The notes under the pieces: generated by a model | The model's database searches: none | Told to the model about the DNA's origin: nothing | Seen by the model: only the letters and a program-made list of their open reading frames with translations | Program-made: the position numbers and the translations under genes | Assembly: GCA_963924565.1 (NCBI GenBank) | Contig: OZ004610.1 | Location: forward strand, 6,076,001 to 6,140,000 | Direction: 5' to 3' | Source of the DNA: Ascidiella aspersa | Taxonomy: Eukaryota | Length of the DNA stretch: 64,000 nucleotides | Shown here: one piece after another, positions 5,241 to 60,188 of the stretch | Layout of the letters: every line of letters begins with the position of its first letter | Position numbering within the stretch: the stretch's first letter is position 1

Positions 5241-8200
5241 TTACGAGCTGATACAACTGGAACTGAAACATAAAAGGTATTTGAGACTGGAAAAGTGTAG
5301 ATGTGGCCTATGTATGCAGAGCCGCACAAAACATTTGCTGGTGTATTTTTATAGAAGCTTTAACTTGGTTGCTAAGTTTTTCAAGAGGTGAAACAAACAA
5401 AAGACTATAGTAGGCTATAAATAACCTTAAGGCCTTGAAATGTGAAAAATTACATTATTTACTCCAAACTTTTATTTTTTCGTTAAACAAGACAAGAAAC
5501 ATCCTTGGTTTTTGGTTTGAGCGTTTATCAGTCAAAACAAAAAAGTAGCCTACTACTGATAGGTTTAGGACCAGGTACTGTATTGCCCTTTTTATTTGTG
5601 ACGCCCTTGGCCCTTTTATACACTCTGTTGAATCTTTCTTATTACTTCTATTATCTAAACTTAATTCCGCGAAAGGATAACCCAACTTTTAAAATTCGAC
5701 TCAGTAACAAATCTTATTTCATGCAAACTCACTAATACGCGTTGTAGTAGTAGCCGTAGCTGGACTGCTGCGGGTAGCACGCCTTCCAGGTGTAATAGCT
5801 GCCGAAGCGATATGAAGGCATGTAGAACTGGGCCTGTCTGCAGCGCGCAGTACAGCTGTAGTGCAGCACCAGTTTGGCGCTGGCGTCGGTCCAGTAGGAA
5901 TCCAAACCGCTAGTTACAGACTTGCAGTAGATGACCAGCTTCTCGGCGTAGGCCTGAACCAGTTCCATTACCTCTTCAGGCAGATTTTCACCGTGGTAGG
6001 CAGTCAGCATAGCGATGTAGTTCTTGAAGTGCGAAAGCTTGGCCTATGAACGAGCGCATTCGTAAGTTTAATTCTGTGCGAGTTTGGTTTCTCAATGGTC
6101 ACGTTTACATAAGTAATGTCGTATTATAAGATGCCGAATCACAAAAGCTCTAAAATGACGCCGATGCATTTCTATTATACCACGCGTAAGCGGTGTAGTG
6201 CTGTTCTTGCCAAACTTATAATACTAGATTTAAACCAAATAAAAACAGTGTTGTAAGGAAGGTGCAAATAAGCAATTATTTCGGACAAATGACAACTCAA
6301 ATTGCATTCTACAGCCAAGCGCGTGATATCGTATTGCATTTTTATCATTTTGAAGCCTAATGACTTAAGGTTATGGTTAGACCTGGACCAGTACTTTCGT
6401 TACCACGTTGAAAATTAATAAAGAATTGTTGGAAACGTTTAAAATATGCTAGCTATACAGCATTGGCTATGATATTACTTCTACTTTGCCACAACAAATG
6501 ACATTTCCAAGCCCTTCCAGTCAAGCTCGACAGCACTCACAGCGGACATCGACGCAATCATGGCGCTCCGCTGGGAGGCGTGCTGCCCGTCGAGCTTCTT
6601 CTTATAGTCGGCGATTCTGGCGGCGCGGTCGGTCAGGCAGGAAGCGTAAGAGGCCACGACACGGTCCAAATAGGACTGTACGTGCTGACGGAAGCGCTCG
6701 ATACTGGCGCTAAACTTGCTCGCACAGTCGACGATAATTTGGGCGAGTTTCTCCTGGTAGTCGGCCACCGTTTTGTTGTACAGCTCAGCCAGCTCCTTGG
6801 TGCAGTCGGCGATTTGCGCCTTCTGGTCGGCGGTTAGCTCTAGGCTCTTGTTCCTGCATATCGATCAGCGGAAGAGATTTCACAAATGCGAATGCCAAAA
6901 AAACAAGCTCATTTAAAGCATAAAGCTTGTAGTTATAAAACGAATATCAAAGCTTGTACAAATGAAATTGGCTTTCGTTAGCGTATCAAGTAGCACAATC
7001 CTTATTGAAAGCGCATTTGTTACACAGAGAGGAATTCGATGTGTTGGTTAAGATCCCTTTTTATCTATGCATTACAAAAGATTGTACAAATTTAATTTCA
7101 ATCAACAAACTGGTTATGCCGCTGTGGCTCGATAGATATACCCTAAAGAAAACGTGTGATCATGTATATTATTATGGGTTTTACTTGAATATACACGTCA
7201 GCTGAACAGTTGTCGGCAAGCAGAAATTATTCAAGATAGCACTCATGCAATTTAAAAATTTTGATTTAGGGTCTCAAAAGTTTTGATTTAGTTTATTAAT
7301 CCATTGTGATAAGAATATTCGCGGAATACAGGTGAAACACTACTGTCTAAAAACCGAAACATTCCTTTGCTTCGTAACGCTACAAAAGAATCCTGAATTT
7401 GTTGCGGTAATAGAACTTTTACCCAACACTGTTCAGGACGTAAGCTTGACATGCCCGCAATCTTGAATGTGAAATCGTGCATTTAAAATATGCATCGGTA
7501 TTGAACGCGCTACTAATCCCCCCTCTCCCCCTCAAAAAATAATCGAGTTCACGACTGGTCCCGTCAACGAACTATATTCATCTTACAAACCTACCAGGCC
7601 TGGAAGGTTTTGACTTTGCTGTCAATCACAAAGGCGTGTCTGGCTTTGACGATTTCCTTGTACTTGTTGTAGTATTCGACGTGGTATTGGACCCACTTGG
7701 CCTTCCACGCAGCAAAGTCGACCACAAACTTGGCCACAGCCTCGTCCAATTTTTTCTGCAATTCGGACTTCACGTCGGCCACCGGCTTGTTTAAGGTGTC
7801 TGAGCAGAACAAAACAACGTAAATTTCCAGATACTGACCTACACGTTCCCTGACTAATGTAAGTGCCCTTTGTTTCGTAAAACGTTATATTGGTAAAATT
7901 GTGAATTTTATTGCATATATATTTTAATGCTCAGAGGTTAAACGCAAAGTAGCTAACTGTTGTAATAAGTAAAAATAAGAGGCGTGAGGTGAATTTACCA
8001 GTCTCAAAAATAACACAAAAACGTGGGTGTAATCGTAGGCTATATGTATGACAAGTAGTTGTAGTATTTGCAAACGCGGAATGTTAGTGACACGGAAGAA
8101 AAGGCATACATCCAGTTTATGGTTAAACAACTTGGTTTGTGGGTAGGCTACTCTTTTTATTTTGGCAGTCAAAAAACACCCCAAAACTTGCAAAACCTCA

Positions 8201-11200
8201 AAATCTTTATTTGTTTTTTTCTAGTTCTTTTAGAGGCATTAGACTGCTTAGCAGTAACCGAGACTGCATCAAACTTTATTTATATTTATCATTCGATGCC
8301 AGTATAGAGCTGGGATGAATGTATAATAATGTTTTTTTCTTGGAACGCATAAAGATTTTTAGGGGGGCAAATCTCATTTTTATAGGAGGTTTTGACAAGA
8401 ATATTGCAAAAAGTTAACGCAATCGGTGAGAAAAACGTCGTTTCTACGTAGCTGAAGTTCAAAGTTTGGAAATCCAAAATAATGCACTTTTCGTAACAAA
8501 ATTGTTTAAAAAATAGCAAAACGGGTTACGATTATAGGACACGCCCGTAAATCATTTGACGAACTGCTCCTTAAAAATAGAGAAATCCTTCTTTGCATAA
8601 ACTTTTGCAACGAGTGTTTTAGTATGATCATCAAGCAGTGGCTTATAGTGACATTTGCACAAAATTGCTATTCTTTTAACACTTACTAAGATCACAAGTC
8701 TTAAGTCCGTTGTAGGTAATTTTGCGCCAGTTGAAGCTGAACTTTCCCATGGAGTAGTTCACGTACTTGTAGCTGCTGTGCTGATACCAACGTCCAAGCT
8801 TTTGACTGAAAACAGTATGCGTTGTCACGTTAAAAATGCGGTAGTTAGGCTATGCGTGCCGTGGCACATAATAGTTGAAAAGTACTAAAAATGATGACAT
8901 TTTACTATTCAAGGATTGTTTGTTTGTGATATTTTTTTATATTTTTTGTAGATCTATGGTCGGCAAAAAGTGATTTCAAATAACTGGTGATAACAAGGGA
9001 ATTAGTGATTTTACACAATTCGCAACAAACACACTTGATTAAATATGAAGAGCTAAATTTTCGACTATATTCGAGTCGGCATGTTTTAATAGAATAAGAA
9101 TGTTTGTCTTTGCGAAATGCAAAACCAGATTCATTTTATTATTTTTTCAGGTTGTTTCAAATCCGGGCCCACACTAGTTAATTTAGAAATGAAACTTGCC
9201 TCAAATTTGTATATTTGCGTCTTATTTGAAGTTTTCGAACACTGTTAACGTATTATAAGCAAGTAAGTTTAGCATAATATACAAATTATAGCTCGAGACT
9301 TTTCAAGTGTGTGTTGGGATATTTAAGCGCCCGGTTTAGATAGATTACCATCCGTTGTAGTAGTAGGCACGGTAGAACTTCAGGTAGGAGTTGGATAGGT
9401 AGCAGCGGTAGGCGCAAGTGTAGAATCCGAGCAATGTGTCTTTGGCAACGAGCATCTGCTTCGTATAGGCCGCCACCATATCCCTGATCTTAAACATTTC
9501 GTGCTTGGCGAAAACAACGATCACTCGATCGACGATGCTGGTATCGCTATCTGGGTTACCTTAAAAAAATGCTGGACTTTGTCAGACATGTGGCCATTTG
9601 GGCAATGCGCGTTTTTAGATCTCTTTATGTTTAGGTATTTTGTTTTCAATTTAAAAAAATTCTAAAAATAATAAAAATTCGCCAATCGTAAACTCTAAAA
9701 AATATTCTACTATATATGATTAGCCATTTTAATCGATCAATAAAAAACAAAACAAATCAAATTTAAAAATAATGGTTATTCAAAAGTTTTCAACAAAATA
9801 TCACTTTATACAATTGTTTTAAAAATACCACCATTAAGGCTTTTTTTCCTAAAGTTTTTTTTTTTTCCAAAAGCAATTAAAGGTCTTAATTATTTATTTG
9901 TAGCAATGACTGTTAGACAATAAGAAGTTAAGGTTTAATTTATTTATGTTATACAATATGCCTGTGGTATCAAACGTCACCTACTAATCCGATATAGAAT
10001 GCAACAAAGTATACTTACAGTCAAGTTTTACAAGGACCTCTTTGTACTTTTGGGACCTGGTCTTGAGTATGGCGAGGAGATACTTATAGTAGTTGATGGT
10101 GTAGTCCTTGATCTTTTTGTTGATTTCCTTTTCGTAATCGAGGATTTTTGCGGCGCGGGTTGCAAGGCACTTCGCGGCACTACAGAGGTGTTAACAAATA
10201 CATTTGCAGGACTGTGTAGCAGACAGTTAGTTACATAGACTTTGTATTGTGTATGGCAGTGCTATTCAAACTTTTTTTGGTTCGGTGAACCTTGAAGGTT
10301 TTGTGACAAATTCATGCACCCTGTTTACTTAAAAGGCAAACTGAGTAAAAAGCGATCTAACAAATCATTATGCTTAACAATATTATCATGTTAATTAAAC
10401 CGAGCGGAGCTGCCGAAGTTTTAAACACTGTCGGTGAGAGTTCGATTATGGCTGCAGGCTGCTTGCGAGTTCTACTACATGTCATAACACAGCATTCAGT
10501 GTTAAACATTAATATTTCATAAAAAATAGTGTGATGCACCCTTATATACCTGTTTGTTCTGGGGCACCCTATTCATACTTTGATGCATACTAGGGTACAC
10601 TGTGCACACCAGTTAAAGAGCACTGATGTATGGTATAATGCCACCTAAGGCATTAAAAATTGTCATGGCAAATTCGAGTAAAGTGATTTTATTTGTAACT
10701 GAATTGTATGAACTTTTCCATTTCGACCTTTGATCAATTATAAAATATTACGATGACACAAAATGTAAAATAAAGTACAACACACTCACAATATTAAATT
10801 GTTAAATTAAACAAATATACTAAAAACAGTTTACTGTAAAGCCAATAAACCCTTCAAAGTAGTAAAAATAACTTCGAAGATTGATTTTCGATAACAATGT
10901 TTTTAGAAAGCAACAGGCAACAAATAATAACAATTATATAAATGATCACTGCATTGACGTTAGTTCAAACATAGCTTGAATATAGCTTGAAAGAGAATAA
11001 ATCAGCAAAACTGGAGCGAGGTCTTTGAAAAGAGTTTGTCAGTGTTTCGCCGTCCAATTTTGGAATGCTGTTGTTCACTGGCATTTTTACTTGGTTGACA
11101 GGAATTTGTGCAAGTAATAATACTGTTTGGGTCACAATTTTACATTATTTCAAGTTTTTCCATTAATTTGTACCACGCTTTATAAATGTGATAATCTGCG

Positions 11201-13965
11201 CTTTGCTGGAGTAGGCCTAATAAGTTCTGTATGGTTAAAAGTCAAATAGCGATTACACCATGCCGCCAAGTTCACTTCGATAAAACAACTAAAGTTAAAA
11301 AAAACTTTCGCGTTTCGAGTTTCACCCGCTGTTATTTTAGAGGTCTTGAAAAAATAAAAGAAAAACAAGACAACTCACTTTTCGACAAGTTTTTCGTGAA
11401 AGGCGATTACGCTCTGCAGTTTGGCGAGAACGGCTTCGCTGAAGGCCTTCAAGGCGTCTGTTCTGCGTTCGTCGAGCTTGGCGTTGTACTCTGCAATCTT
11501 GGCATCTCTTTCCTTGGCGAGCTCAGCCTTTTCTACATCGGTGGCGAACCTGAAAGGGTGGGATTGCTGTTTGCAAACTTTCGTACATATAATTTTAAAA
11601 GAGTGCGTATAGTTTTTACTCAACCCGTTGATAGAAGGTTTCTGTTGATTAATCGCTGCACTGCTGCCGCGTACACAAGCAAGTTGTGAAAATGTTAAAA
11701 AATTAGAGCAAAAAATGGCCTGCTTTCTACTCTAAATGGCATCAAACAAATACTAAACAAAATTAACTTGCTGTTATGTGTATTGTTTTATTTTCCATAT
11801 TTGTGTATTGAATTCTCCCCTTGACGATAGGGCTGTTACTCCTACCCGAATTATATGGTGCAAATTTATATAAATTTAAGAAACCTTTCTAATTATTACT
11901 CTGTGTTTTACTCTGGAAATAAATGTTTGGGAGAGACTCATCAAATTTTCTTCAAAAAAGAACGTGACCACAAGGATTCCCGATCGCGGCCGCGTATGAA
12001 ATTTCGATCGAACTTTATTAACTTGATTTATCGTTAATCAAAGGAAAGATAGTCGCTATTAGATAAAAAAAAACTTTAAGCTTGGTAAAACGGTTACTTT
12101 ACCGCGCGGTAAAGTCCATTAGAGAAATGCTCACGTCATCTTGTAGGCGTAGTACTTGTTCACGTAGAGGGCGAAGGTCTCCTTGTAATCCTTGTGCCTC
12201 TGATCGACCTGCTTCGTCCAGGCGTCGCGCTGTGAGTTCATTTCGCGCGCCACTTTGAGCAAGCTCTCCTTGAGTAGGTTTCTCATTTCGTCAACGGTCT
12301 CGGCAATTGGAGTCTCTGCGTTTTTTGAATACACTCTATACGTAATGTTGACTTTTTTGCCACAAACCAAACTTAAATGCATTCCGTAGAAAGATAATGT
12401 TTTTTTTTAAATTGTTGTTCGCATTAAAATCTAACAACCTTTACTTTTCGCAATTGCTATAAAAACGTCATTTTTTCTGCCTTAAATTAATTTTTGTTGT
12501 TATACCCTAGTGCAGGGATGGCGAACCACTGACCCGCGATGAAAAGGTTCGCCATCCCTGCCCTAGTAAGTCCTCTTCCAAAACAGTTACCCACCATCAT
12601 CCACGGCATTTTTACATCGCATTTTATCTCACCAATAAATTAACAGGGTTTCCCCAAAACAACATGTCGGCAACTTAACTTTGCGTGTATTATTATGTTT
12701 TTTTGCGGTCCACTCGTATCCAATATTAATTCGTTTCATTGTGTCTTTCATTTGTAAACAAAAAGTGACTACATTTAAAGCGAAACTGGAGTTTGCACTT
12801 GAAGCAATTAAATGCAACGGATGAGGTGGTGTTTTAGGAGAAAGATGTGCAAAAAATCATGGCGAAGGTTTTAATTCATAATGTCTGCGGTTACCTGCCG
12901 ACCTAGGAAAGAATATAGGCCTAGTGGATTACAAAACAAAACGCAAAAATACATTATAACGCGAAAACGTTTTTTGTTATGGTTTTCGTTTTATGGGAAT
13001 TATACCCTCCTAAAATTTTATTGCGTATAAAAGCCAATATAATAGGCGCAATCGTGTTTGGTATGCTTACTTATTGTTTTCGTATTGTGCGAACTAGTTA
13101 TATGCTACCTAATTTTTTTGTGTGAAAGTCAAAATAATTCGTAAGGATTCTATAAAATAAAATAACGTACCTTTCCATCCTTCAGTGCCACAATCTTCAC
13201 CGGGATACATTTTGAGGATGGGCGAGTAAAACTTGCTCGAGCACCAATACGGGTTGAACCGAAGGCGATAGTGGTAGAGTTGGTTGGATGGGAAAACACA
13301 GTAGTTCATATGACAGAAGTAACTGTAGCTGTACACGACGGTCGATGCATTTGTTACCTGCAACCGAAATTCAAAACACTTTAGATTGCTGTATTCCAAC
13401 TGATATTTCTTTGATAAGCTAGTTTTGTGGAAGATCTGCAGACCGAAAAAGAAGTAGATCGAAAGAGCATTATTTTCTTGAAGTGAAGACAGTTTTACAA
13501 CAGCGTATACGTTCATTTTTGACGCCATGAAAAAGCTCTATTTAACTACATTGGAAATTCAAACAAACATCTGCCAAATTTTTATTTTCTTTCCAGGCGT
13601 TTGCGCTTATGCAAAATTGAATAGACATTTAGTTTTTCCTGAAAGCGTCTACCTCAAATGACAACTTTTCTTGCTTCGCGTTGACTCTTGGAAAATAGAT
13701 AAAAAAAACGGTTAATTTATTTCAAAAAATAAATTTATTCCAAAAGATAAATAAATTATTCGAATAAATATCGCACTTTTTAGAAAGCGACGTAAGTTTG
13801 AAACACACTATTGTGATTTAGTAGTTAACAGGGGTTTAAACATATTGCTACAAAAGAATACTGAAGATTTAAAATCGTCATGACGAAATTCTGCAGTCTT
13901 TAGTTCTTTAAAAGCAGCTAAATACTTACGGCTATGCAGGCCAAAAGTATTAGGAGCAACTTCAT
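5241..13965 (-). CDS. Paralog P: uncharacterised secreted Tyr/Cys-rich, amphipathic-helical protein, 638 aa. 11 exons: 13965-13930, 13357-13171, 12315-12135, 11549-11379, 10179-10019, 9559-9349, 8805-8687, 7799-7595, 6853-6541, 6043-5733, 5262-5241
   Basis: Hand splicing gives a 1917-nt open frame MKLLLILLACIA|VTNASTVVYSYSY...YSSCISS*. All introns are GT-AG with the same phases as the array copies. Exons 1, 3, 5, 8, 9, 10 have identical lengths (36, 181, 161, 205, 313, 311). Exon 8 is 33/68 identical to the array copies by hand alignment. AATAAA at 5107-5102. Confidence 0.88.
10257..10625. mobile_element. hAT MITE (CAGTGCT-ended family) in intron 4 of P
   Basis: Ends CAGTGCTATTCAA / TTAAAGAGCACTG. 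TSD GTGTATGG/ATGTATGG (7/8). Inverted homolog of 17959-18341. Confidence 0.8.
12513..12560. mobile_element. 48-bp minimal hAT MITE
   Basis: Perfect 15-bp TIRs CAGGGATGGCGAACC / GGTTCGCCATCCCTG around an 18-bp core. TSD CCCTAGTG/CCCTAGTA. Confidence 0.8.
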
Positions 13966-23551: not shown

Positions 23552-26500
23552 TTAGGCGCAGTATCTGTAGTATCCGCTGCAATACCTGACACGGTAACTG
23601 CAGGTGCGTCTGCAAAACAAAAAAAAAGAAACATCAACAGCAGCAAACAATTTTAAAAGTTACATTACGTCACATGCAAACAGTGCAACAAATTCGAAAT
23701 AAATTATTCTGCGTCAATAAGACGCGTTAAAAGTTCTATTAGTTTTTACTGTATAATAGCTTATGACTGGCATATCAAAGCAAAAAAAGTGTATCATTAA
23801 AACGCAACAACTTACACATATGTGGTGTAGCAGTAGCTGTAGGAATTAACACAAGGAAGTGTGAATTTCCAGCTGAAGTAGCTTCCGTAGCAGAATCTCG
23901 GCATACAGAATCTTCCCACGTAACACTTGGCGCAGCAAGTGTAGTGAAGCACCAACTTGTCGAGGACGTCTGTCCAGTGGGCATCGAACTCAGCAAGGAT
24001 CGAGTTGCAGTAGATCACCAGCTTATCAGCGTAAGCATTACCAAGCACGTTGACCGAATCGGGAAGGGTTTCGCCGTGATGGAACTCATACATTGCAACG
24101 TATGTCTTCCAGAAAGCATTCTTGGACTGCAAACACAATAGTTTAGATCACAATCTTATAAATATGACAAGCTAATAATTTTCTAATAATATAAGATAAG
24201 TTAAAACTTTAGCCAAAAGATGTTTTTTGCAAACCTTGACCAAAGAATCCAACAAAGCTGATCTTTGTTTGTCGCGGCTATCTTCAAGTTTCTTCTTGTA
24301 ATCAGCAATCTTCGTAATGCGAGTGGCTAAGCATTCGGTGTACTTGTCGGTGATGCTCTTGATCATTTCGTTCACCTTAGTTGTGTAATCTGCAATGCTC
24401 TTGTGGAACTTTGCGAAGCATTCGATGAGACTAGCCAACAATTTTGCAGTGTACTCAGCAATTGCTGTATCCATTTTTTCCTTCAATTCCTGGGTAAGGG
24501 CTGCGATTTCTGCCTTTTGTTCATCAGTCAATTCAGTACTGTTGTTTCTGAAACGCAACACAAAAATTAAAATAATATAGATGCGGTTTTTTATAAGGGT
24601 CTAAATATTATCAAACGTTCCTAATATTTTGCGTGTTTTTCTTAAAAATTTTTATAGTTTATCATCAGTTAAGATTGACCAAGATTTTTATCTTACAAGC
24701 AAACGTAGTAAGCAGTCTTTGACTTGATGATGTTGGCGTGTCTTGCTTCGATGATTTCTTTGTATGCCTTAATGTAATCGACGTGGTATTGAGCCCACTT
24801 CGCCTTCCATTCATTGAATTTTGTCGTATATTCTCCTACAGCCTTTGAAAGTTGTGCTTCAAGTTCTGCTTTGATGTCTTCCACGCTCTTGTTAATGGTT
24901 CCTGTTGAAAAACACTTGTAGACAAGGAAAATATTTTATCTTTGTTTTTACATATGATGTAATAAGTTACTGTAATAAGTTACGTAATAACGTCACCACT
25001 TAATTAAGCAAAAAAATCGTGCTGTTTTTTTTTAGTACCATTGTGCAACTATAGTTAAATTAAAGCGCGATAAAATGCGTTAAGTTGTGAACCTTGTCCA
25101 TGTCATATATAACTACTAACTGTATCATACCAACGTCACATGTTTTCAATCCCTTGTAGCTGATTCCACGCCAGCAGTAGGAGTAACCGGACAAGCAACC
25201 ATACATTTTATAAGAGCACCTGGTGTAGCTCCACCAACATCCCAAAGAACGGCTAAAAAGTAAAATGCTCTTTCTAAGCTTTATTGTTATAAGTTAAGTC
25301 AAGCCTTCCCAAATATAATTTGTATTCTGTTAAATCAAAACATGTTTTTTACTGTTATTTTTAAGATCGAATTTCATTTAATATATTTACCAAGTATTGT
25401 AGTAGCTACGTTTGTAGAATTGAAGACAACCGTTGGTGAGGTAGCAGCGGTAGGAACATGTGTAGTAGGAAACCAGCTTGGCTTTGGTAATCAAAAGTTT
25501 GGCCAAATATTCCAGAGATTTGGTCTTGATCAGAATACATTCTTGGTCGTGGAACGACTGGATGACGGCATCGATTTTATCCTTGAAACCTTCGGCGTAG
25601 TCACCTAGGAAAAATATGATCGTTAAAGAATTAAATCTATTTAAACGTTATACATTTGTAATCTAAATTTACCATGAACGACTTCAAGTGTCTTCCTGTA
25701 ACGGTCTTCACGAACCTTGAGGACCGCCAAAAGATACTTGTAGTATTTGTTAACGTATTCGGTAATTTTGGTAGTCAACTGCTCGGTGTATTCTTTGATT
25801 TTTTCTTGTCTGGTTGTCAGACATTTTACGGCACTAAAATATAAATAAACGTTGTAATTTGTTTTTAATTTGTACAATCGGTAATATATTAACATAAAAT
25901 TAGAAATTTATTATTTTATAACAATTAAAACAGCAACAAATTAGTATACTTCTCAAGGAGTTTGGTGTGGTAATCAGTAATAGACTGGATCTTTGCTTCC
26001 ATCGCGGTGTTGTAGCTCTTCAAAGCCTCTGCTTTACTGTTGTCAAGATCGTCGTTGTATTTGGCAATCCTGGCGTCTCTTTTAGCTTCGAGTTCTACTT
26101 TCTCTTCGTCAGTGCTGGCTTTTCTAGAACGTCAAAAATGATTGGAATTCAATAACACTATTACGAGGGACCCAGTAAAAAAAATTTATAACACCAAATC
26201 AAATTACCAGTGATCGCTACACAAACATCTATATACCGATCTACAAATATCACCAATCTACTACTCTAGGTACTGTTATTGTTGATAAAATCAATTTGTT
26301 TGAACTACTTACGAGATATAGTACTCGTAGTATCTGTTGATGTATGTGGCGAAATCGGTCTTGTAATCAGCAATAACCTTCTCAACGTCTGCGATCCACT
26401 CGTTCTTCTTTGTGGTCATTTCGCTAACAATGGTGGCAAGACTTTCTTTGAGCAAATTGCTCATTTCAGTTTCAACTTCGGCGATGGTGCGTTCTGCAAA

Positions 26501-27196
26501 TGAAAACGAATAATATATTCACACCGCAAAGCCATCGCAGACTCGCCGAATATGTCGATCTATGATACAAGCAGAGCAAGCCAGATAAACAACTGGCCTG
26601 CAGTGAGGTTCGAACCCACGACCTCCGGTCAAGCCGGGACCGTCGGTCTACCAACTGAGCTATGCAGGCTCAGAGAGGCCTGCAGAGAGGCCGTAATCGT
26701 TGGTCACAAAGCAACATCCGAGGGGCTAGATCACAGATGTTATTAAACACATATGTTTGTGTGTGCCTTTCATCAATAATATATTTACTTAAGGAAATCT
26801 CACCGTTGCCTATCCTGTAACAATTTGACATTTTACAATTAGTTTCGAATAAGTTATTCTTCCTAAGTTTTAACCTAAAGCATGGCCATTTTGTACCTTG
26901 CCATCCATCTTTTCCGCAGTCATCTCCTGGGTAGTACTTGAGGATGGGAGCGTAGAACTTGGAGGAACACCAGGCTCTGTTGAAATAGATGTTGAAGCAG
27001 AAGGTCTGTGGTGCGGGTTGAACACAGAACTGCCTTCTGTAGTAGTAGGAGTAGGAATAGGTGCAAAATGCGTTTGAGGCCTGAAAAATATTGTCCACAA
27101 TCGTAAGCTAAAGGTCTATAAAATATAAAAAATACTCCTAAAGAAATGGCAACAACTTACGGCAATGCACGCCAGAAGAACTAGCAGAATCTTCAT
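23552..27196 (-). CDS. Copy A: secreted Tyr/Cys-rich helical protein, 652 aa. Exons 27196-27161, 27080-26897, 26493-26313, 26123-25950, 25833-25673, 25604-25391, 25252-25131, 24901-24697, 24547-24235, 24126-23816, 23609-23552
   Basis: Exon lengths 36/184/181/174/161/214/122/205/313/311/58 = 1959 nt, open frame MKILLVLLACIA|ASNAFC...RYCSGYYRYCA*. All introns GT-AG. Upstream TATA/Inr and downstream AATAAA. Confidence 0.9.
26520..26774 (-). mobile_element. 255-bp tRNA-containing retroelement-like insertion in intron 2 of copy A only
   Basis: 11-bp TSD AATAATATATT (26509-26519, 26775-26785). Absent from the same intron in B-E. Internal tRNA-like segment 26669-26596 with box A TAGCTCAGTTGG and box B GGTTCGAACC. 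Confidence 0.85.
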
Positions 27197-27238
27197 CTTT
27201 GTTTCTCTTCCAATTGAATCTCTTCCTTGGGTAGAGCT

Positions 27239-27273
27239 GAATGATTTGCAGTGAGCGCTGCAGAACTTTTATA
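27239..27273 (-). promoter_or_regulatory. TATA box + initiator of copy A
   Basis: TATAAAA 27273-27267 and TCATTC, with its A 31 nt from the TATA start. Confidence 0.75.
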
Positions 27274-30964: not shown

Positions 30965-33900
30965 TTAGGCGCAGTATCTGTAGTATCCGCTGCAATACCT
31001 GACACGGTAACTGCAGGTGCGTCTGCAAAACAAAAAAAAAGAAACATCAACAGCAGCAAACAATTTTAAAAGTTACATTACGTCACATGCAAACAGTGCA
31101 ACAAATTCGAAATAAATTATTCTGCGTCAATAAGACGCGTTAAAAGTTCTATTAGTTTTTACTATATAATAGCTTATGACTGGCATATCAAAGCAAAAAA
31201 AGTGTATCATTAAAACGCAACAACTTACACATATGTGGTGTAGCAGTAGCTGTAGGAATTAACACAAGGAAGTGTGAATTTCCAGCTGAAGTAGCTTCCG
31301 TAGCAGAATCTCGGCATACAGAATCTTCCCACGTAACACTTGGCGCAGCAAGTGTAGTGAAGCACCAACTTGTCGAGGACGTCTGTCCAGTGGGCATCGA
31401 ACTCAGCAAGGATCGAGTTGCAGTAGATCACCAGCTTATCAGCGTAAGCATTACCAAGCACGTTGACCGAATCGGGAAGGGTTTCGCCGTGATGGAACTC
31501 ATACATTGCAACGTATGTCTTCCAGAAAGCATTCTTGGACTGCAAACACAATAGTTTAGATCACAATCTTATAAATATGACAAGCTGATAATTTTCTAAT
31601 AATATAAGATAAGTTAAAACTTTAGCCAAAAGATGTTTTTTGCAAACCTTGACCAAAGAATCCAACAAAGCTGATCTTTGTTTGTCGCGGCTATCTTCAA
31701 GTTTCTTCTTGTAATCAGCAATCTTCGTAATGCGAGTGGCTAAGCATTCGGTGTACTTGTCGGTGATGCTCTTGATCATTTCGTTCACCTTAGTTGTGTA
31801 ATCTGCAATGCTCTTGTGGAACTTTGCGAAGCATTCGATGAGACTAGCCAACAATTTTGCAGTGTACTCAGCAATTGCTGTATCCATTTTTTCCTTCAAT
31901 TCCTGGGTAAGGGCTGCGATTTCTGCCTTTTGTTCATCAGTCAATTCAGTACTGTTGTTTCTGAAACGCAACACAAAAATTAAAATAATATAGATGCGGT
32001 TTTTTATAAGGGTCTAAATATTATCAAACGTTCCTAATATTTTGCGTGTTTTTCTTAAAAATTTTTATAGTTTATCATCAGTTAAGATTGACCAAGATTT
32101 TTATCTTACAAGCAAACGTAGTAAGCAGTCTTTGACTTGATGATGTTGGCGTGTCTTGCTTCGATGATTTCTTTGTATGCCTTAATGTAATCGACGTGGT
32201 ATTGAGCCCACTTCGCCTTCCATTCATTGAATTTTGTCGTATATTCTCCTACAGCCTTTGAAAGTTGTGCTTCAAGTTCTGCTTTGATGTCTTCCACGCT
32301 CTTGTTAATGGTTCCTGTTGAAAAACACTTGTAGACAAGGAAAATATTTTATCTTTGTTTTTACATATGATGTAATAAGTTACTGTAATAAGTTACGTAA
32401 TAACGTCACCACTTAATTAAGCAAAAAAATCGTGCTGTTTTTTTTTAGTACCATTGTGCAACTATAGTTAAATTAAAGCGCGATAAAATGCGTTAAGTTG
32501 TGAACCTTGTCCATGTCATATATAACTACTAACTGTATCATACCAACGTCACATGTTTTCAATCCCTTGTAGCTGATTCCACGCCAGCAGTAGGAGTAAC
32601 CGGACAAGCAACCATACATTTTATAAGAGCACCTGGTGTAGCTCCACCAACATCCCAAAGAACGGCTAAAAAGTAAAATGCTCTGTCTAAGCTTTATTGT
32701 TATACCTTCCCAAATATAATTTGTATTCTGTTAAATCAAAACATGTTTTTTACTGTTATTTTTAAGATATCGAATTTCATTTAATATATTTACCAAGTAT
32801 TGTAGTAGCTACGTTTGTAGAATTGAAGACAACCGTTGGTGAGGTAGCAGCGGTAGGAACATGTGTAGTAGGAAACCAGCTTGGCTTTGGTAATCAAAAG
32901 TTTGGCCAAATATTCCAGAGATTTGGTCTTGATCAGAATACATTCTTGGTCGTGGAACGACTGGATGACGGCATCGATTTTATCCTTGAAACCTTCGGCG
33001 TAGTCACCTAGGAAAAATATGATCGTTAAAGAATTAAATCTATTTAAACGTTATACATTTGTAATCTAAATTTACCATGAACGACTTCAAGTGTCTTCCT
33101 GTAACGGTCTTCACGAACCTTGAGGACCGCCAAAAGATACTTGTAGTATTTGTTAACGTATTCGGTAATTTTGGTAGTCAACTGCTCGGTGTATTCTTTG
33201 ATTTTTTCTTGTCTGGTTGTCAGACATTTTACGGCACTAAAATATAAATAAACGTTGTAATTTGTTTTTAATTTGTACAATCGGTAATATATTAACATAA
33301 AATTAGAAATTTATTATTTTATAACAATTAAAACAGCAACAAATTAGTATACTTCTCAAGGAGTTTGGTGTGGTAATCAGTAATAGACTGGATCTTTGCT
33401 TCCATCGCGGTGTTGTAGCTCTTCAAAGCCTCTGCTTTACTGTTGTCAAGATCGTCGTTGTATTTGGCAATCCTGGCGTCTCTTTTAGCTTCGAGTTCTA
33501 CTTTCTCTTCGTCAGTGCTGGCTTTTCTAGAACGTCAAAAATGATTGGAATTCAATAACACTATTACGAGGGACCCAGTAAAAAAAATTTATAACACCAA
33601 ATCAAATTACCAGTGATCGCTACACAAACATCTATATACCGATCTACAAATATCACCAATCTACTACTCTAGGTACTGTTATTGTTGATAAAATCAATTT
33701 GTTTGAACTACTTACGAGATATAGTACTCGTAGTATCTGTTGATGTATGTGGCGAAATCGGTCTTGTAATCAGCAATAACCTTCTCAACGTCTGCGATCC
33801 ACGCGTTCTTCTTTGTGGTCATTTCGCTGACAATGGTGGCAAGACTTTCTTTGAGCAAATTGCTCATTTCAGTTTCAACTTCGGCGATGGTGCGTTCTGC

Positions 33901-34332
33901 AAATGAAAGCGGGTAATATCTTTACTTAAGGAAATTTAACTGTTGTCTACCCTGTAACAAGTTGAGATTGATAATTAGGTTTTAATATGTTATTCTTCTT
34001 AAATTTTAACCTAAAGCATGGCCATTTTGTACCTTGCCATCCATCTTTTCCGCAGTCGTCTCCTGGGTAGTACTTGAGGATGGGAGCGTAGAACTTGGAG
34101 GAACACCAGGCTCTGTTAAAATAGATGTTGAAGCAGAAGGTCTGTGGTGCGGGTTGAACACAGAACTGCCTTCTGTAGTAGTAGGAGTAGGAATAGGTGC
34201 AAAATGCGTTTGAGGCCTGAAAAATATTGTCCACAATCGTAAGCTATAGGTCTATAAAATATAGAAAATACTCCTAAAGAAATGGCAACAACTTACGGCA
34301 ATGCACGCCAGAAGAACTAGCAGAATCTTCAT
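30965..34332 (-). CDS. Copy B: secreted Tyr/Cys-rich helical protein, 652 aa, 11 exons
   Basis: Near-identical to A. ATG at 34332, exon 1 34332-34297, stop 30967-30965. Splice sites retained and no stop or frameshift seen. Confidence 0.9.
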
Positions 34333-34374
34333 CTTTGTTTCTCTTCCAATTGAATCTCTTCCTTGGGTAGAGCT

Positions 34375-34409
34375 GAATGATTTGCATTGAGCGCTGCTGG
34401 ACTTTTATA
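34375..34409 (-). promoter_or_regulatory. TATA box + initiator of copy B
   Basis: TATAAAA 34409-34403, TCATTC 34380-34375. Confidence 0.75.
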
Positions 34410-37587: not shown

Positions 37588-39169
37588 CCTTGAAACCAAG
37601 AAATGTAGCGCATTTCGAAAGCCCGTAGTAATACAGAAAAATAAATTCATCTGAAATATACCTGTGTGCTGTTTTAGTTATTTTGTTACTCGAAGTTTTA
37701 TCTAAATCATTATTGTTTGTGTGAAATGATTCTTTAGGAAGAAAGTTCTAAGGGGTTAAATGAATGTTAGCACTTGGTGGAGATGATTAAAGACACAAGA
37801 TACTCTTAAGGATAATCGACAAATTATCATCAACGAAGTAAGGCAAACCAGAATCCTCTGGCTCTAAAATATTTGCCCGGTCGCTCAAAAACTGTTAAAT
37901 TTTAATATAAAAATAAAAAAAATACCTTTTAAATCTTTTTTTAAGTACCACTTCGTATTTGCCTTAGTTAAAACAATATAATTTTAATAAAATTAACAGA
38001 AGACCAAGTAATTTTACAACATACAAATATAGTTGAAACTCGGGCATATCTGATAACAATGCAAGTATGGTAATATGAACAATTTTATCCAAAAGACCTT
38101 ATGGCAGAGTTTACAATATGCCCTCTGGTCCGAACAAATTGCCTGCTAAAGCAGATACTCTACTCGACGGCTTCAAGTAGAGTATAACTACCAGCATTTT
38201 AAGCAATTCGTTAAGTCATTTGTCGAAATCATTTAAGTACACTTAGTTCAAGTCATTAACTTATGTAAGTACAACACTGACAAATAGGCTACCCTAGTAT
38301 ATTAACTATAAAAAAAATATATATATAAAAGACGCACATAACACGCATTGGACAATATATTTGAACATCATAAAATATCCAATTAAATTTACTGCGGTAC
38401 TAGGAGACTGTACGTTATGAAAAATATAATACTCTAAGTTTAATTTTCCAAGTCTATACGCTAAACTAAATTCTTGTTTGTATTAATAAAATTCTTGTTT
38501 TACCTGAAGCTAAAATGTTTTAATCCACAATTAACTCGTTCTTTGGGACCCTACACTGTGATTAAAGTAATATTTGGCAAAAAGTAAAAGCGTATATAGG
38601 CATAAGATTGATTTATTCACCAGGACTTCTTGATCTTCGGCTCAAGGAATTTAGTTTGGGGGACACCGGACATAAAAGTTTTCGAATATATGGATACATC
38701 AATGGATGTTAACTTTTTTACCAGTTGGGTACATCGTTTATTTATAGTTTAAGTTAACAAAACGTAATTTGTAAATTTACGTTATACTCGTTTTTTAATT
38801 TAAGCAACGGAAAGCATGCGAGTTTATTTTGTGGCCTCGAACGCTGTCGGGTAAAAGTGATGAAATCAAATAAAAAAGAAAATCTATTTAAATGGTAAAA
38901 GTTGGAAAAACTTTTGTTTTGGCGCGGCTTTGGTCCATGTCAATGGCTAATTTTCCCATCTTAAATTAATACGGAATACGTCACGTTTCACACAGCCACG
39001 GTTTACAAATGACAAATTAAATTGCAGTTGTAACAGGAAAACGTTAAAACAAGCGCGTGCTGGACTGTACAGGATGCTCTGGAATTTTGTCTTTGCGAAA
39101 GGTGACCCTACCTTCTGTGATTAATTACAAGCCTTTGAACCGATTTTTTTCTTTCAATAAGGCTTATGA

Positions 39170-41985: not shown

Positions 41986-42020
41986 TATAAAAGTCCAGCA
42001 GCGATCAATGCAAATCATTC
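41986..42020 (+). promoter_or_regulatory. TATA box + initiator of copy C
   Basis: TATAAAA 41986-41992, TCATTC 42015-42020. Confidence 0.75.
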
Positions 42021-42062: not shown

Positions 42063-45000
42063 ATGAAGATTCTGCTAGTTCTTCTGGCGTGCATTGCCGT
42101 AAGTTGTTGCCATTTCTTTAGGAGTATTTTCTATATTTTATAGACCTATAGCTTACGATTGTGGACAATATTTGTTGCAGGCCTCAAATGCATTTTGCAC
42201 CTACTCCTACTCCTACTACTACAGAAGGCAGTTCTGTGTTCAACCCGCACCACAGACCTTCTGCTTCAACATCTATTTCAACAGAGCCTGGTGTTCCTCC
42301 AAGTTCTACGCTCCCATCCTTAAGTACTACCCAGGAGATGACTGCGGCAAAGATGGTTGGCAAGGTACAAAATGGCCATGCTTTAGGTTAAAATGTAAAA
42401 AGAATAACATATATCAAAACCCAATTATCAATCTCAACTTGTTACAGGGTAGACAACAGTTAAATTTCCTAAGTAAAGATATATTTCCATTTGCAGAACG
42501 CACCATCGCCGAAGTTGAAACTGAAATGAGCAATTTGCTCAAAGAAAGTCTTGCCACCATTGTCAGCGAAATGACCACAAAGAAGAACGCGTGGATCGCA
42601 GACGTTGAGAAGGTTATTGCTGACTACAAGACCGACTTCGCCACATACATCAACAGATACTACGAGTACTATATCTCGTAAGTAGTTCAAACAAATTGGT
42701 TTTGTGAACAATAACAGTACCTAGAGTAGTAGATTATTAATATTTGTAGATCGGTATATAGATGTTTGTGTAGCGATCACTGGTAATTTGATTTCATGTT
42801 GGTGTGCAACAAATTTTTCCACTGGGTCCCTCGTAATAGTGTTATTCAATTCCAATCATTTTTGACTTTCTAGAAATGCCAGCACTGACGAAGAGAAGGC
42901 CGAACTCGAAGCTAAAAGAGACGCCAGGATTGCCAAATACAACGACGATCTTGACAACAGTTAAGCAGAGGCTTTGAAGAGCTACAACACCGCGATGGAA
43001 GCAAAGATCCAGTCTATTACTGATTACCACACCAAGCTCCTTGAGAAGTATATTAATTTGATGTGGTTTTAATTATTGTAAAATCTTATATTTCTAACTT
43101 TATGTTATTATATTGCTGATGCTACGAATCAAAAAAAAACTTCAACACATATTTATTTTATAGTGCTGTAAAATGTCTGACAACCAGACAACAAAAAATC
43201 AAAGAATACACCGAGCAGTTGACTACCAAAATGACCGAATACGTTGAAAAATACTACAAGTATCTTTTGGCGGTCCTCAAGGTTCGTGAAGACCGTTACA
43301 GGAAGACACTTGAAGTTGTTCATGGTAAATTGAGATCGCAAATGCCTAATCTTTAAATAGAATTAATTCTTAAACGATCATATTTTTGCTAGGTGACTAC
43401 GCCGAAGGTTTCAAGGATAAAATCGATGCCGTCATCCAGTCGTTCCACGACCAAGAATGTATTCTGATCAAGACCAAATCTTTGGAATATTTGGCCAAAC
43501 TTTTGATCACCAAAGCCAAGCTGGTTTCCTACTACACATGTTCCTACCGCTGCTACCTCACCAACGGCTGTCTTCAATTCTACAAACGTAGCTATTACAA
43601 CACTTGGTAAATATATTAAATGAAAATTTCAATTGTTTGTTTCAATTTCTTGGATTTCGATATATCTACTTAAAAATAACAGTAAAAAACATGTTTTGAA
43701 TTACCAGAATAAAAATTATGTTTACAAAGGCTCGATTAATATTATAGCAATAAAGCTACTAACTCGTAAAATGTGACAGAACATTTTACTTTTTAGCCGT
43801 TCTTTGGGATGTTGGTGGAGCTACACCAGGTGCTCTTACAAAATGTATGGTTGCTTGTCCGGTTACTCCTACTGCTGGCGTGGCATCAGCTACAAGGGAT
43901 TGAAGACATGTGACGTTGGTAAGATATAGTTAGTAGTTATATGTCATGGACAAGATTAATAACGTAACGCAGATTTTCGCGCTTTATGTTAACTGTAGTT
44001 GCACAATCGTACTGAAAAAATAGAACGATTTTTTGGCTTAATTAAGTGGTGACGTTATTACGTAACTCATTAGATCATATGTAAAAAACAATGATACAGC
44101 AAAGATAAAAAGTTTTCCGTGTCTACAAGTGTTTTTTTAACAGGAACCATTAACAAGAGCGTGGAGGACATCAAAGCAGAACTTGAGGCTCAACTTTCAA
44201 AGGCTGTAGGAGAATATACGACAAAATTCAATGAATGGAAGGCGAAGTGGGCTCAATACCACGTCGATTACATTAAGGCATACAAAGAAATCATCGAGGC
44301 AAGACACGCCAACATCATCAAGTCAAAGACTGCTTACTACGTTTGCTTGTAAGATAAAAATCTTGGTCAATTTCGATTTAAAAAAAATATAACATTTCAT
44401 AAGAACACACTCAAAATATTAGTAACCTATGTCAATATTTACGTTATTCTAAAACATCGCATTTCTATACTCTAAATTTTTGTGTTGCGTTTCAGAAACA
44501 ACAGTACTGAACTGACTGATGAACAAAAGGCAGCAATCGCAGCCCTTACCCAGGAACTGAAGGAAAAAATGGAAACAACAATTGCTGAGTACACTGCAAA
44601 ATTGTTGGCTAGTCTCCTCGAATGCGCCGCAAAGTTCGCCAAGAGCATTGCAGATTACACAACTAAGGTGAACGAAATGATCAAGAGCATCACCGACAAG
44701 TACACCGAATGCTTGGCCACTCGCATTACGAAGATTGCTGATTACAAGAAGAAACTTGAAGATAGCCGCGACAAACAAAGATCAGCTTTGTTGGATTCTT
44801 TGGTCAAGGTTCGCAAAAAACATATATTGACAAAAATCTTAATTTGTGTTATATTATTAGACAATTAACTAATTACCATATTTGTAATATTGTGATCTAA
44901 ACTATTGTGTGCTTGCAGACCAAGAATGCTTTCTGGAAGACATACGTTGCAATGTATGAGTTCCATCACGGCGAAACCCTTCCCGATTCGGTCAACGTGC

Positions 45001-45490
45001 TTGGTAATGCTTATGCTGATAAGCTGGTGATCTATTGCAACTCGATCCTTGCTGAGTTCGATGCCCACTGGACAGACGTCCTCGACAAGTTGGTGCTTCA
45101 CTACACTTGCTGCGCCAAGTGCTACGTGGGAAGATTCTGTATGCCGAGATTCTGCTACGGAAGCTACGTCAGCTGGAAATTCACACTTCCTTGTGTTAAC
45201 TCCTACAGCTACTGTTACACCAGATATGTGTAAGTTGTTTTGTTTAAATTACACAATTTTTTGCTTTAAAACAACAATCAAAAACTAATTTGTAGTAAAA
45301 ACAAATATATCTTTTAACGCGTAATATTGTCGCAGAATAATTTATTTCGAACTTATTGCACTGTTTGCATGTGACGTAATGTAACTTTTAAAATTGGTTG
45401 CTACATTTGATATTTCTTATTTTGTTTTGCAGACGCACCTGCAGTTACCGTGTCAGGTATTGCAGCGGATACTACAGATACTGCGCCTAA
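42063..45490 (+). pseudogene. Copy C: full 11-exon copy with premature stop in exon 4. Exons 42063-42098, 42181-42364, 42497-42677, 42874-43047, 43164-43324, 43393-43606, 43797-43918, 44144-44348, 44496-44808, 44919-45229, 45433-45490
   Basis: In-frame AGT TAA GCA at 42962-42964, where A, B, D and E read AGT AAA GCA (Lys). Otherwise intact. Could be a null allele or a base-call error. Confidence 0.75.
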
Positions 45491-56748: not shown

Positions 56749-59700
56749 ATGAAGATTCTGCTAGTTCTTCTGGCGTGCATTGCCGTAAGTTGTTGCCATT
56801 TCTTTAGGAGTATTTTCTATATTTTATAGACCTATAGCTTACGATTGTGGACAATATTTGTTGCAGGCCTCAAATGCATTTTGCACCTACTCCTACTCCT
56901 ACTACTACAGAAGGCAGTTCTGTGTTCAACCCGCACCACAGACCTTCTGCTTCAACATCTATTTCAACAGAGCCTGGTGTTCCTCCAAGTTCTACGCTCC
57001 CATCCTCAAGTACTACCCAGGAGATGACTGCGGCAAAGATGGTTGGCAAGGTACAAAATGGCCATGCTTTAGGTTAAAATGTAAAAAGAATAACATATAT
57101 CAAAACCTAATTATCAATCTCAACTTGTGTTGTTGCAGGGTAGACAACAGTTAAATTTCCCTAAGTAAAGATATTACCCGTTTTCATTTGCAGAACGCAC
57201 AATCGCCGAAGTTGAAACTGAAATGAGCAATTTGCTCAAAGAAAGTCTTGCCACCATTGTCAGCGAAATGACCACAAAGAAGAACGAGTGGATCGCAGAC
57301 GTTGAGAAGGTTATTGCTGACTACAAGACCGACTTCGCCACATACATCAACAGATACTACGAGTACTATATCTCGTAAGTAGTTCAAACAAATTGGTTTT
57401 GTGAACAATAACAGTACCTAGAGTAGTAGATTATTAATATTTGTAGATCGGTATATAGATGTTTGTGTAGCGATCACTGGTAATTTGATTTCATGTTGGT
57501 GTGCAACAAATTTTTCCACTGGGTCCCTCGTAATAGTGTTATTCAATTCCAATCATTTTTGACTTTCTAGAAATGCCAGCACTGACGAAGAGAAGGCCGA
57601 ACTCGAAGCTAAAAGAGACGCCAGGATTGCCAAATACAACGACGATCTTGACAACAGTAAAGCAGAGGCTTTGAAGAGCTACAACACCGCGATGGAAGCA
57701 AAGATCCAGTCTATTACTGATTACCACACCAAGCTCCTTGAGAAGTATATTAATTTGATGTGGTTTTAATTATTGTAAAATCTTATATTTCTAACTTTAT
57801 GTTATTATATTGCTGATGCTACGAATCAAAAAAAAACTTCAACACATATTTATTTTATAGTGCTGTAAAATGTCTGACAACCAGACAACAAAAAATCAAA
57901 GAATACACCGAGCAGTTGACTACCAAAATGACCGAATACGTTGAAAAATACTACAAGTATCTTTTGGCGGTCCTCAAGGTTCGTGAAGACCGTTACAGGA
58001 AGACACTTGAAGTTGTTCATGGTAAATTGAGATCGCAAATGCCTAATCTTTAAATAGAATTAATTCTTAGACGATCATATTTTTGCTAGGGGACTACGCC
58101 GAAGGTTTCAAGGATAAAATCGATGCCGTCATCCAGTCGTTCCACGACCAAGAATGTATTCTGATCAAGACCAAATCTTTGGAATATTTGGCCAAACTTT
58201 TGATCACCAAAGCCAAGCTGGTTTCCTACTACACATGTTCCTACCGCTGCTACCTCACCAACGGCTGTCTTCAATTCTACAAACGTAGCTACTACAACAC
58301 TTGGTAAATATATTAAATGAAATTTCCAATTGTTTGTTTCAATTTCTTGGATTTCGATATATCTACTTAAAAATAACAGTAAAAAACATGTTTTGATTTA
58401 CCAGAATAAAAATTATGTTTACAAAGGCTCGATTAATATTATAGCAATAAACCTACTAACTCGTAAAATGTGACAGAACATTTTACTTTTTAGCCGTTCT
58501 TTGGGATGTTGGTGGAGCTACACCAGGTGCTCTTACAAAATATATGGTTGCTTGTCCGGTTACTCCTACTGCTGGCGTGGCATCAGCTACAAGGGATTGA
58601 AGACATGTGACGTTGGTAAGATATAGTTAGTAGTTATATGTCATGGACAAGATTTATAACGTAACGCAGATTTTCGCGCTTTATGTTAACTGTAGTTGCA
58701 CAGTCGTACTGAAAAAATAGAACGATTTTTTGGCTTAATTAAGTGGTGACGTTATTACGTAACTCATTAGATCATATGTAAAAAACAATGATACAGCAAA
58801 GATAAAAAGTTTTCCGTGTCTACAAGTGTTTTTTTTAACAGGAACCATTAACAAGAGCGTGGAGGACATCAAAGCAGAACTTGAGGCTCAACTTTCAAAG
58901 GCTGTAGGAGAATATACGACAAAATTCAATGAATGGAAGGCGAAGTGGGCTCAATACCACGTCGATTACATTAAGGCATACAAAGAAATCATCGAGGCAA
59001 GACACGCCAACATCATCAAGTCAAAGACTGCTTACTACGTTTGCTTGTAAGATAAAAATCTTGGTCAATTTCGATTAAAAAAAAATATAACATTTCATAA
59101 GAAAACACTCAAAATATTAGTAACCTATGTCAATATTTACGTTATTCTAAAACATCGCATTTCTATACTCTAAATTTTTGTGTTGCGTTTCAGAAACAAC
59201 AGTACTGAACTGACTGATGAACAAAAGGCAGCAATCGCAGCCCTTACCCAGGAACTGAAGGAAAAAATGGAAACAGCAATTGCTGAGTACACTGCAAAAT
59301 TGTTGGCTAGTCTCCTCGAATGCGCCGCAAAGTTCGCCAAGAGCATTGCAGATTACACAACTAAGGTGAACGAAATGATCAAGAGCATCACCGACAAGTA
59401 CATCGAATGCTTGGCCACTCGCATTACGAAGATTGCTGATTACAAGAAGAAACTTGAAGATAGCCGCGACAAACAAAGATCAGCTTTGTTGGATTCTTTG
59501 GTCAAGGTTCGCAAAAAACATATATTGACAAAAATCTTAATTTGTGTTATATTATTAGACAATTAACTAATTACCATATTGGTAATATTGTGATCTAAAC
59601 TATTGTGTGCTTGCAGACCAAGAATGCTTTCTGGAAGACATACGTTGCAATGTATGAGTTCCATCACGGCGAAACCCTTCCCGATTCTGTCAACGTGCTT

Positions 59701-60188
59701 GGTAATGCTTATGCTGATAAGCTGGTGATCTATTGCAACTCGATCCTTGCTGAGTTCGATGCCCACTGGACAGACGTCCTCGACAAGTTGGTGCTTCACT
59801 ACACTTGCTGCGCCAAGTGCTACGTGGGAAGATTCTGTATGCCGAGATTCTGCTACGGAAGCTACTTCAGCTGGAAATTCACACTTCCTTGTGTTAACTC
59901 CTACAGCTACTGTTACACCAGATATGTGTAAGTTGTTTTGTTTAAATTACACAATTTTTTGCTTTAAAACAACAATCAAAAACTAATTTATAGTAAAAAC
60001 AAATATATCTTTTAACGCGTAATATTGTCGCAGAATAATTTATTTCGAACTTATTGCACTGTTTGCATGTGACGTAATGTAACTTTTAAAATTGGTTGCT
60101 ACATTTGATATTTCTTATTTTGTTTTGCAGACGCACCTGCAGTTACCGTGTCAGGTATTGCAGCGGATACTACAGATACTGCGCCTAA
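56749..60188 (+). CDS. Copy E: secreted Tyr/Cys-rich helical protein, 652 aa, 11 exons
   Basis: Same structure, no stop or frameshift seen. Stop 60186-60188, AATAAA at ~60240. Confidence 0.9.

Follow-up and report, generated by a model that had tools for sequence, protein, structure and literature searches.

An anciently duplicated ascidian protein family that matches the endostyle-specific Ends genes, with a proposed role in the mucus feeding net

The mucus net with which ascidians feed is made by the glandular cells of the endostyle, as PMC12205476 and PMC9953650 describe it. The endostyle products treated in PMC8462739 include gel-forming mucins and proteins resembling von Willebrand factor, and primers for four endostyle-specific genes of Ciona, including Ends1 (AB010895) and Ends-sp1 (AB010896.1), are given in Table 5 of PMC7347631. 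This was the sole paper naming Ends genes that a full-text literature search found; the search, which never paired “internal repeat” with “endostyle,” returned no description of the architecture of the Ends sequences, and the primary Ends papers may note a repeat. Here we describe a gene at 42063-45490 on the forward strand of a 64,000-nucleotide stretch of Ascidiella aspersa (contig OZ004610.1, positions 6,076,001 to 6,140,000, assembly GCA_963924565.1), hereafter the window. Its 11 exons encode a protein of 652 residues. We favor, at somewhat better than even confidence, a reading in which this ascidian protein, made of an anciently duplicated unit, matches Ends, is predicted to form two long helical hairpins, and is likely secreted to serve as a structural subunit of the feeding net.

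Ciona has secreted endostyle-specific proteins of roughly this size, and this prompted a comparison with their primers. The peptides encoded by the Ends-sp1 primers fall on residues 87-130 of the window protein, at the exact spacing of the 132-bp amplicon and with 10 of 14 residues identical; they score 45, and none of 30 shuffles exceeded 28. Scores at that place are above the shuffles in eight of 14 family proteins. The Ends1 primers also fall on the family at exact spacing, with 8 of 14 residues identical in the homologue P0025 (44 vs. 30 in shuffles), and find a common place in seven of the 14 proteins, just three of which rise above the shuffles. For Ends3 and Ends-sp2, none of the 14 proteins scored above the shuffles. 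The comparison covers 14 residues per gene, taken from the primers, and either gene is at most a candidate orthologue; judged over these residues, the family matches the ascidian endostyle-specific Ends genes. Against the Ciona Ends genes, compared over that short span and with no repeat, fold, or function found described for them, A. aspersa sets an arrayed family of about 35 copies.

Expression was considered through the Ciona intestinalis homologue LOC100186110 (P0006), which appears as KY.Chr12.60 in Table S1 of PMC9953650 with 1435.7 reads per kilobase per million (RPKM) in a single organ; its values in the ten others do not exceed 0.13. KY.Chr12.60 is listed there as the best match of a Styela gene whose peptide equals, by eye, the end of P0061, and whose own endostyle value is a modest 5.5. 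The column that holds 1435.7 is the fourth and is headed “heart.” We infer that the headers are shifted and that this column holds the endostyle values, since the filter in that paper removed genes above 0.5 outside the endostyle, no other Ciona column rises above 0.5 in the rows examined (34 of 104, in 7 of which the fourth column does so), and the endostyle is listed fourth in Table 1 of the source study (PMC8462739). Such a shift, which is probable, would make endostyle genes appear as heart genes in a public table. The family accessions were found neither by full-text literature search nor in the searched supplement parts of PMC13225635, PMC7401272, PMC10980280, and PMC8462739. A possible lead, the epidermis gene HrEpiC, was dropped when a literature search gave unrelated papers.

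The original prediction, whose span corresponds to exons 3-10, held the protein to be an ancient internal two-fold repeat, and this claim is well borne out. The four motif pairs on which it rested are present in order at the places given (Table 1), with one of them, STDEEKAELEA/LTDEQKAAIAA, lying seven residues away from the main diagonal, and CLATRAAKILDY and CLTDRAARIADY are both found in the diverged paralogue P. Each half does begin with a phase-1 intron followed by a phase-2 intron, as the ten intron phases (0,1,2,2,1,2,1,2,0,2; GT-AG in all ten) confirm, and two introns stand at equivalent places in the halves, 0-3 codons apart: intron 2 matches intron 7 (phase 1), and intron 3 matches intron 8 (phase 2). 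The correspondence of introns ends there, introns 4, 5, and 6 being unmatched by 9 and 10.

Alignment of one half against the other gave a single-sequence local score of 215. Four shuffling schemes, each run 500 times, never reached it and had maxima of 75, 115, 126, and 169, and the reversed half scored 75. With profiles built from 17 sequences, the halves aligned over 242 columns at a probability of 99.5% (E 3.3e-23). Segment by segment, the first helices of the two halves (A1 and A2) matched at 87.5%, the long helices (B1 and B2) at 98.6% over 108 ungapped columns, and the third helices (C1 and C2) at 96.1%, compared with 3.2, 4.2, and 22.9% in reversed controls. Periodic amphipathic helices could in principle generate such a signal artefactually: off-register profile alignments reached 95.5 and 87.5%, block-shuffled controls up to 94.9% probability, and some single sequences did not exceed the maximum of their 11-block shuffles, the half-half score being above the maximum of 100 block shuffles in 14 of 17 family members and not in P0005, P0032, and P0043 (52 vs. 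70). We nevertheless hold this explanation to be barely credible and refuted by the alignment tests, for the profile score was 167 against no more than 63 in 30 block-shuffles and 38 when reversed; invariant columns (Cys, Arg, Ile, Tyr, Leu, and the YxCxxxC motif) pair at fixed offsets across the halves; and helix lengths and turns are alike, in addition to the two equivalent introns. The N-terminal, middle, and C-terminal segments, rich in tyrosine (Tyr) and cysteine (Cys), showed no mutual alignment in profile comparison outside the 13-residue YxCxxxC motif. Off-diagonal pairs of helical segments matched more weakly, above reversed controls widely in 11 of 12 cases and by probability in all 12, and within each long helix one half matches the other (84 and 70%); together these hint at an older unit, about 50 residues long, beneath the two-fold repeat.

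The age of the duplication can be read from a tree of 34 half-sequences from 17 proteins, in which all N-halves are split from all C-halves with support of 100/99, a separation that none of 500 label shuffles matched. By this sequence tree the duplication is older than the divergence of Ciona, Clavelina, Styela, and A. aspersa, and of a distant environmental clade, because the two kinds of halves separate completely. The named homologues are all ascidian, are 30-48% identical over nearly their full length, and share the two-unit layout: H2YML8, H2YLM1, and H2YRI4 of Ciona savignyi, LOC100186110 of C. intestinalis, LOC143452699 of Clavelina lepadiformis, and LOC120332195 of Styela clava. In their sources they are uncharacterised, unnamed, and without a Pfam domain. 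Styela clava holds many near-identical members on one 20-Mb contig, and marine environmental records supply a clade 22-25% identical with a like layout; two of these relatives, P0039 and P0043, carry N-terminal low-complexity repeats of the GGKSMG type before the conserved body. Single-unit homologues, for which the original prediction had proposed a search, did not turn up among 28 exon-10 profile matches drawn from 1.84 billion representatives, a blank limited by the sensitivity of the search; of these matches 21 were inspected, and the short ones were exon-sized or lacked a signal peptide. Longer homologues were returned by an exon-6 profile search (five) and not by an exon-10 word search (none of 17 candidates). 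P0034 was dropped as an unrelated repeat protein, and P0004 had no usable match in the ESM Atlas.

The fold was predicted with AlphaFold2 on natural homologues standing in for the spliced window protein, namely P0025 of Ciona (46% identical to the window protein; 77-row alignment) and P0060. The P0025 model (predicted local distance difference test, pLDDT, 82.7; predicted template modelling score, pTM, 0.48) places the helices of unit 1 at 75-133, 137-243, and 250-293 (59, 107, and 44 residues) and those of unit 2 at 361-424, 431-544, and 551-593 (64, 114, and 43 residues), so that the two long helical arms foreseen from the sequence are recovered with element lengths that match between halves. 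The second model, of a fragment from Styela that contains unit 2, showed the same helix pattern (pLDDT 83.6, pTM 0.60). The disulfide-bonded beta core that the original prediction also envisaged did not materialize: the two models contain strands of just 3-5 residues, several at low confidence, and no sheet. The N-terminal and middle segments are largely confident (block pLDDT 72-94 for 31-70) yet scored as coil, and sheets might still form between molecules. Cysteines are strongly conserved, with Cys196, Cys295, Cys299, and Cys594 in all 17 family members and Cys498 and Cys598 in 16 of 17, hence three near-invariant residues per half, which suggest disulfides in each unit. Foldseek returned no match at E <= 0.001 for either model, and the best VIA-align Z-scores (9.4 and 8.8) lie within the helical-bundle background; no fold stands out, which is not proof of a new one. 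A prediction that paired the two halves as a complex, and that drew on no alignment, scored 0.00 and gave no verdict.

The helices are amphipathic with an unusual period. Hydrophobic residues recur every 3.64-3.69 positions in A1, B1, A2, and B2 and every 3.74-3.78 in the C helices, which are short. Power reaches 8.4-19.0 at the best period but 0.0-2.3 at 3.5, so that the pattern is 11/3 and not the heptad of canonical coiled-coil fibrous proteins, and an 11-position hydrophobic pattern runs unbroken through B1 and B2 in the same register. Long amphipathic 11/3 helices are shared with the exchangeable apolipoproteins (apoA-I, A-IV, and E; PF01442), and the protein could accordingly bind lipid or surfaces, its hairpins opening and wrapping around lipids or hydrophobic particles within the endostyle secretion. 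In addition to the period and the resemblance to lipid-binding helices, 12 of 22 members have a Pfam Apolipoprotein match (best E 3.4e-13), and apoA-I, A-IV, and E top the PDB sequence search (best E 3.5e-6). We think this role unlikely, since such matches are expected from any amphipathic 11/3 helix; exon 9 scores 20.5 bits against a Pfam cut-off of 90, and P0025 has no Pfam match; Pro-punctuated 22-mers are missing, with proline at 0 of 218 and 1 of 230 residues of the helical parts; and the near-invariant cysteines point to a locked fold. The Tyr/Cys segments and the two-fold repeat of 300 residues likewise set the family apart from PF01442. A long helical hairpin is also seen in the hyperactive antifreeze protein of winter flounder (PDB 4ke2), a dimer of hairpins with 11-residue repeats; at 5% identity, with Z 8.4 (within the helical-bundle background) and a root-mean-square deviation of 3.2 over 138 aligned residues, it offers an analogy for hairpin-on-hairpin packing alone.

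We propose that each predicted unit, consisting of helix A (about 60 residues), the long helix B (about 110), and helix C (about 45), would form a two-stranded rod of about 16 nm, with A and C each folded back on half of B and their ends meeting at mid-B. A disulfide-closed rod is suggested by the lengths, A and C together approximating B, and by the antiparallel register, which would place Cys196 beside Cys295/299; the bond at mid-B would thus join Cys196 to Cys295/299 in unit 1 and Cys498 to Cys594/598 in unit 2. A spare hydrophobic stripe may be buried by hairpin-on-hairpin packing, within or between molecules, and bundles and filaments would arise in this way; the Tyr/Cys-rich segments, which are cationic, may glue or cross-link the hairpins, whether through disulfides or through dityrosine formed by the endostyle peroxidase. 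The gene arrays would supply the dosage for continuous secretion of the net. A rod that is secreted in abundance, is locked by cysteines, carries cationic Tyr-rich patches and an unused hydrophobic stripe, and is encoded by about 35 gene copies would appear to fit a filament subunit best. Such a subunit would resemble the gel-forming mucins and von Willebrand factor-like proteins of the endostyle in being a secreted, cysteine-rich component of mucus (PMC8462739), but it differs from mucins in having no proline-, threonine-, and serine-rich region (Ser+Thr 14%, Pro 1%) and no Pfam match to a vWD or cystine-knot domain.

The same segments invite two other roles. Immune genes are often arranged in arrays, and the N-terminal, middle, and C-terminal segments hold 24 Lys/Arg against 4 Asp/Glu, so that they might bind or kill microbes in the pharyngeal mucus, with the helical rod as carrier or membrane-inserting part; zone 6 of the endostyle is called an antimicrobial epithelium in PMC10980280. 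We rate such a defense function as rather improbable, as the copies are homogenised and under purifying selection (ratio of nonsynonymous to synonymous differences, pN/pS, about 0.13 between inverted blocks) and not diversified, and a long uncharged helix suited to insertion was not seen in the helical parts, which are about 30% charged. Tyrosine makes up 8-12% of all 12 ascidian members, and the protein might alternatively be a scaffold on which the thyroid-type peroxidase forms iodotyrosines, a stand-in for thyroglobulin, which tunicates are not known to have. The endostyle concentrates iodine, expresses a gene similar to thyroid peroxidase, and makes iodinated proteins, as PMC9953650 and PMC12205476 report. 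We doubt this role strongly as a primary function, Ends expression being attributed to glandular zone 6 and not to zone 7, and about 35 copies suiting bulk material over a hormone precursor; as a side role, it is compatible with a building block of the net.

Several observations weigh against the net-component reading that we favor. The Ends1 primers do not score above chance on the window protein itself (25 vs. 31, at a different place), the column heading, at face value, reads “heart,” and the helices resemble those with which apolipoproteins bind lipid. Endostyle expression does not fix function; localisation to the net, assembly, and cross-linking are proposed, and the way in which cysteines pair, the geometry of the rod, and its polymerisation are putative. 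At the pTM of the P0025 model (0.48), the packing of the two halves is tentative. Tyrosine falls to 3.6-6.5% in five environmental relatives, which weakens the case for a universal Tyr cross-link. RNA is thin: one run, of unstated tissue, yielded nine reads out of 7.8 million records, all on the expected strand, four of which (two distinct starts) cross the joint of exons 8 and 9. Moreover, sites for Fox, Nkx2-1, and Otx were not enriched in six promoters of the family (Fox in 4 of 6 vs. 0.43 in the background; Nkx2-1 in 2 of 6 vs. 0.18).

At the locus itself, a hydrophobic start of 15 residues, common by eye (without a predictor) to all full-length family members, is likely a signal peptide, which would make the protein secreted. 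A TATA-like site is found in five of six subfamily promoters, compared with 0.26 of 200-bp background windows. The premature stop in exon 4 (Table 1) was not mentioned in the original prediction. Position 42962 is A in the contigs of runs X1, X2, and X4, and since the other five copies also read AAA, the stop is private to one copy, as a null allele, or an assembly error.

The gene at 42063-45490 is one unit of a 7.35-kb tandem array whose DNA is about 99% identical, beside which lie an inverted pair 87-93% identical and the diverged paralogue P; four neighboring copies in the window are intact (Table 1). Exon searches of the genome gave 37 matches for exon 2, 37 for exon 6, 38 for exon 9, and 41 for exon 10, or about 35 copies clustered on four contigs, mostly in tandem arrays. 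The gene models of other subfamilies retain the 11 exons and their phases, with one additional intron in a gene on C1, and pN/pS of 0.13-0.31 in 15 pairs among six near copies indicates purifying selection. The array consists of two head-to-head blocks (window 20400-35400 and 39400-64000), and the silent-site difference, about 1% within a block and about 8.5% between blocks, suggests homogenisation within the blocks.

Several copies are damaged or altered. A broken copy at the inversion junction (window 36200-38600) retains exons 9-11 with deletions, an exon 10-11 remnant at 19600-20430 is interrupted by repeat DNA, and the SY repeat of exon 2 is enlarged by six bases (Ser-Tyr) in one copy (49519-49708). 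Elsewhere in the genome, a copy in the C7 array (L010, G000:C7:25115121) has an in-frame TAG in exon 9. The additional intron of the C1 paralogue (L037:5875-6214, G000:C1, minus strand) lies in exon 9, is of phase 0, differs in position from intron 4, and consists of a minisatellite with AG|GTAAAG in its unit, which has the look of an intron gained through tandem duplication of a proto-splice site. An apparent single-unit gene at 8.07 Mb of C3 (G000:C3; L040:1700-4830), with first-half joined to second-half exons, was rejected as a pseudogene in which exon 4 and everything between the middle of exon 5 and the middle of exon 9 are deleted and splice donors are lost.

Table 1. Features of the gene, its neighboring copies, and its internal motif pairs (window positions unless residues are stated).
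Feature	Position	Strand	Basis or remark
TATA box	41986..41992	+	77 bases 5' of ATG
Exon 1, likely signal peptide, residues 1-12	42063..42098	+	Similar hydrophobic start in named homologues; by eye
Exon 2, N-terminal Tyr/Cys/aromatic segment	42181..42364	+	Gene model; genome matches
Exon 3, predicted helix A1; covers the Ends-sp1 primer match	42497..42677	+	Gene model, AlphaFold2 homologue
Exon 4, start of predicted long helix B1	42874..43047	+	Gene model, AlphaFold2 homologue
Premature stop TAA, codon 164	42962..42964	+	AAA in five other copies
Exon 5, second part of predicted helix B1; invariant Cys196, Arg200	43164..43324	+	Gene model, family alignment
Exon 6, predicted helix C1, YxCxYxC at end (Cys295, Cys299)	43393..43606	+	Gene model, AlphaFold2 homologue
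Exon 7, Tyr/Cys-rich linker joining both units; Cys355 in 15/17	43797..43918	+	Gene model, family alignment
Exon 8, predicted helix A2	44144..44348	+	Gene model; RNA-read joint 44348-44496
Exon 9, bulk of predicted long helix B2, Cys498	44496..44808	+	Gene model, AlphaFold2 homologue
Exon 10, B2 end, predicted helix C2 with terminal HYxCxxxC (Cys594, Cys598), Tyr/Cys tail	44919..45229	+	Gene model, AlphaFold2 homologue
Exon 11, coding part and stop	45433..45490	+	Gene model
Intact tandem copy, 654 residues	49401..52841	+	DNA about 99% identical
Intact tandem copy, 652 residues, reference model	56749..60188	+	Gene model
Intact inverted copy M1	23552..27196	-	Gene model
Intact inverted copy M2	30965..34332	-	Gene model
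Diverged paralogue P, exons 1-10, phases as in main gene; last exon not confidently placed	5733..13965	-	Gene model
Motif pair STDEEKAELEA / LTDEQKAAIAA	residues 137 / 432		Offset 295; 6/11 identical
Motif pair KCLTTR.. / ECLATR..	residues 195 / 497		Offset 302; 8/17 identical
Motif pair EVVHG / EFHHG	residues 242 / 544		Offset 302; 3/5 identical
Motif pair KLVSYYTCSYRCY / KLVLHYTCCAKCY	residues 288 / 587		Offset 299; 8/13 identical

The net of the endostyle feeds ascidians and their pelagic relatives, the endostyle itself is the forerunner of the thyroid, and the protein filaments of the net are unnamed in the literature examined. The gene described here would be a new member of the named Ends family, whose architecture appears to be undescribed, and it brings to this setting an abundant, ascidian-wide, and amplified family tied to the endostyle, with a predicted architecture of two 16-nm 11/3 hairpins, cysteine locks, and Tyr-rich patches. 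A bolder version, in which Ends would be the filament protein of the tunicate net, a fibre class built of disulfide-locked 11/3 hairpins that grew by eightfold repetition of an older helix of about 50 residues, and cured by the thyroid-type peroxidase of the endostyle through its tyrosines, is one we regard as a long shot. If it were true, the hardening of the net and iodination would act on one and the same substrate, at the root of thyroid chemistry.

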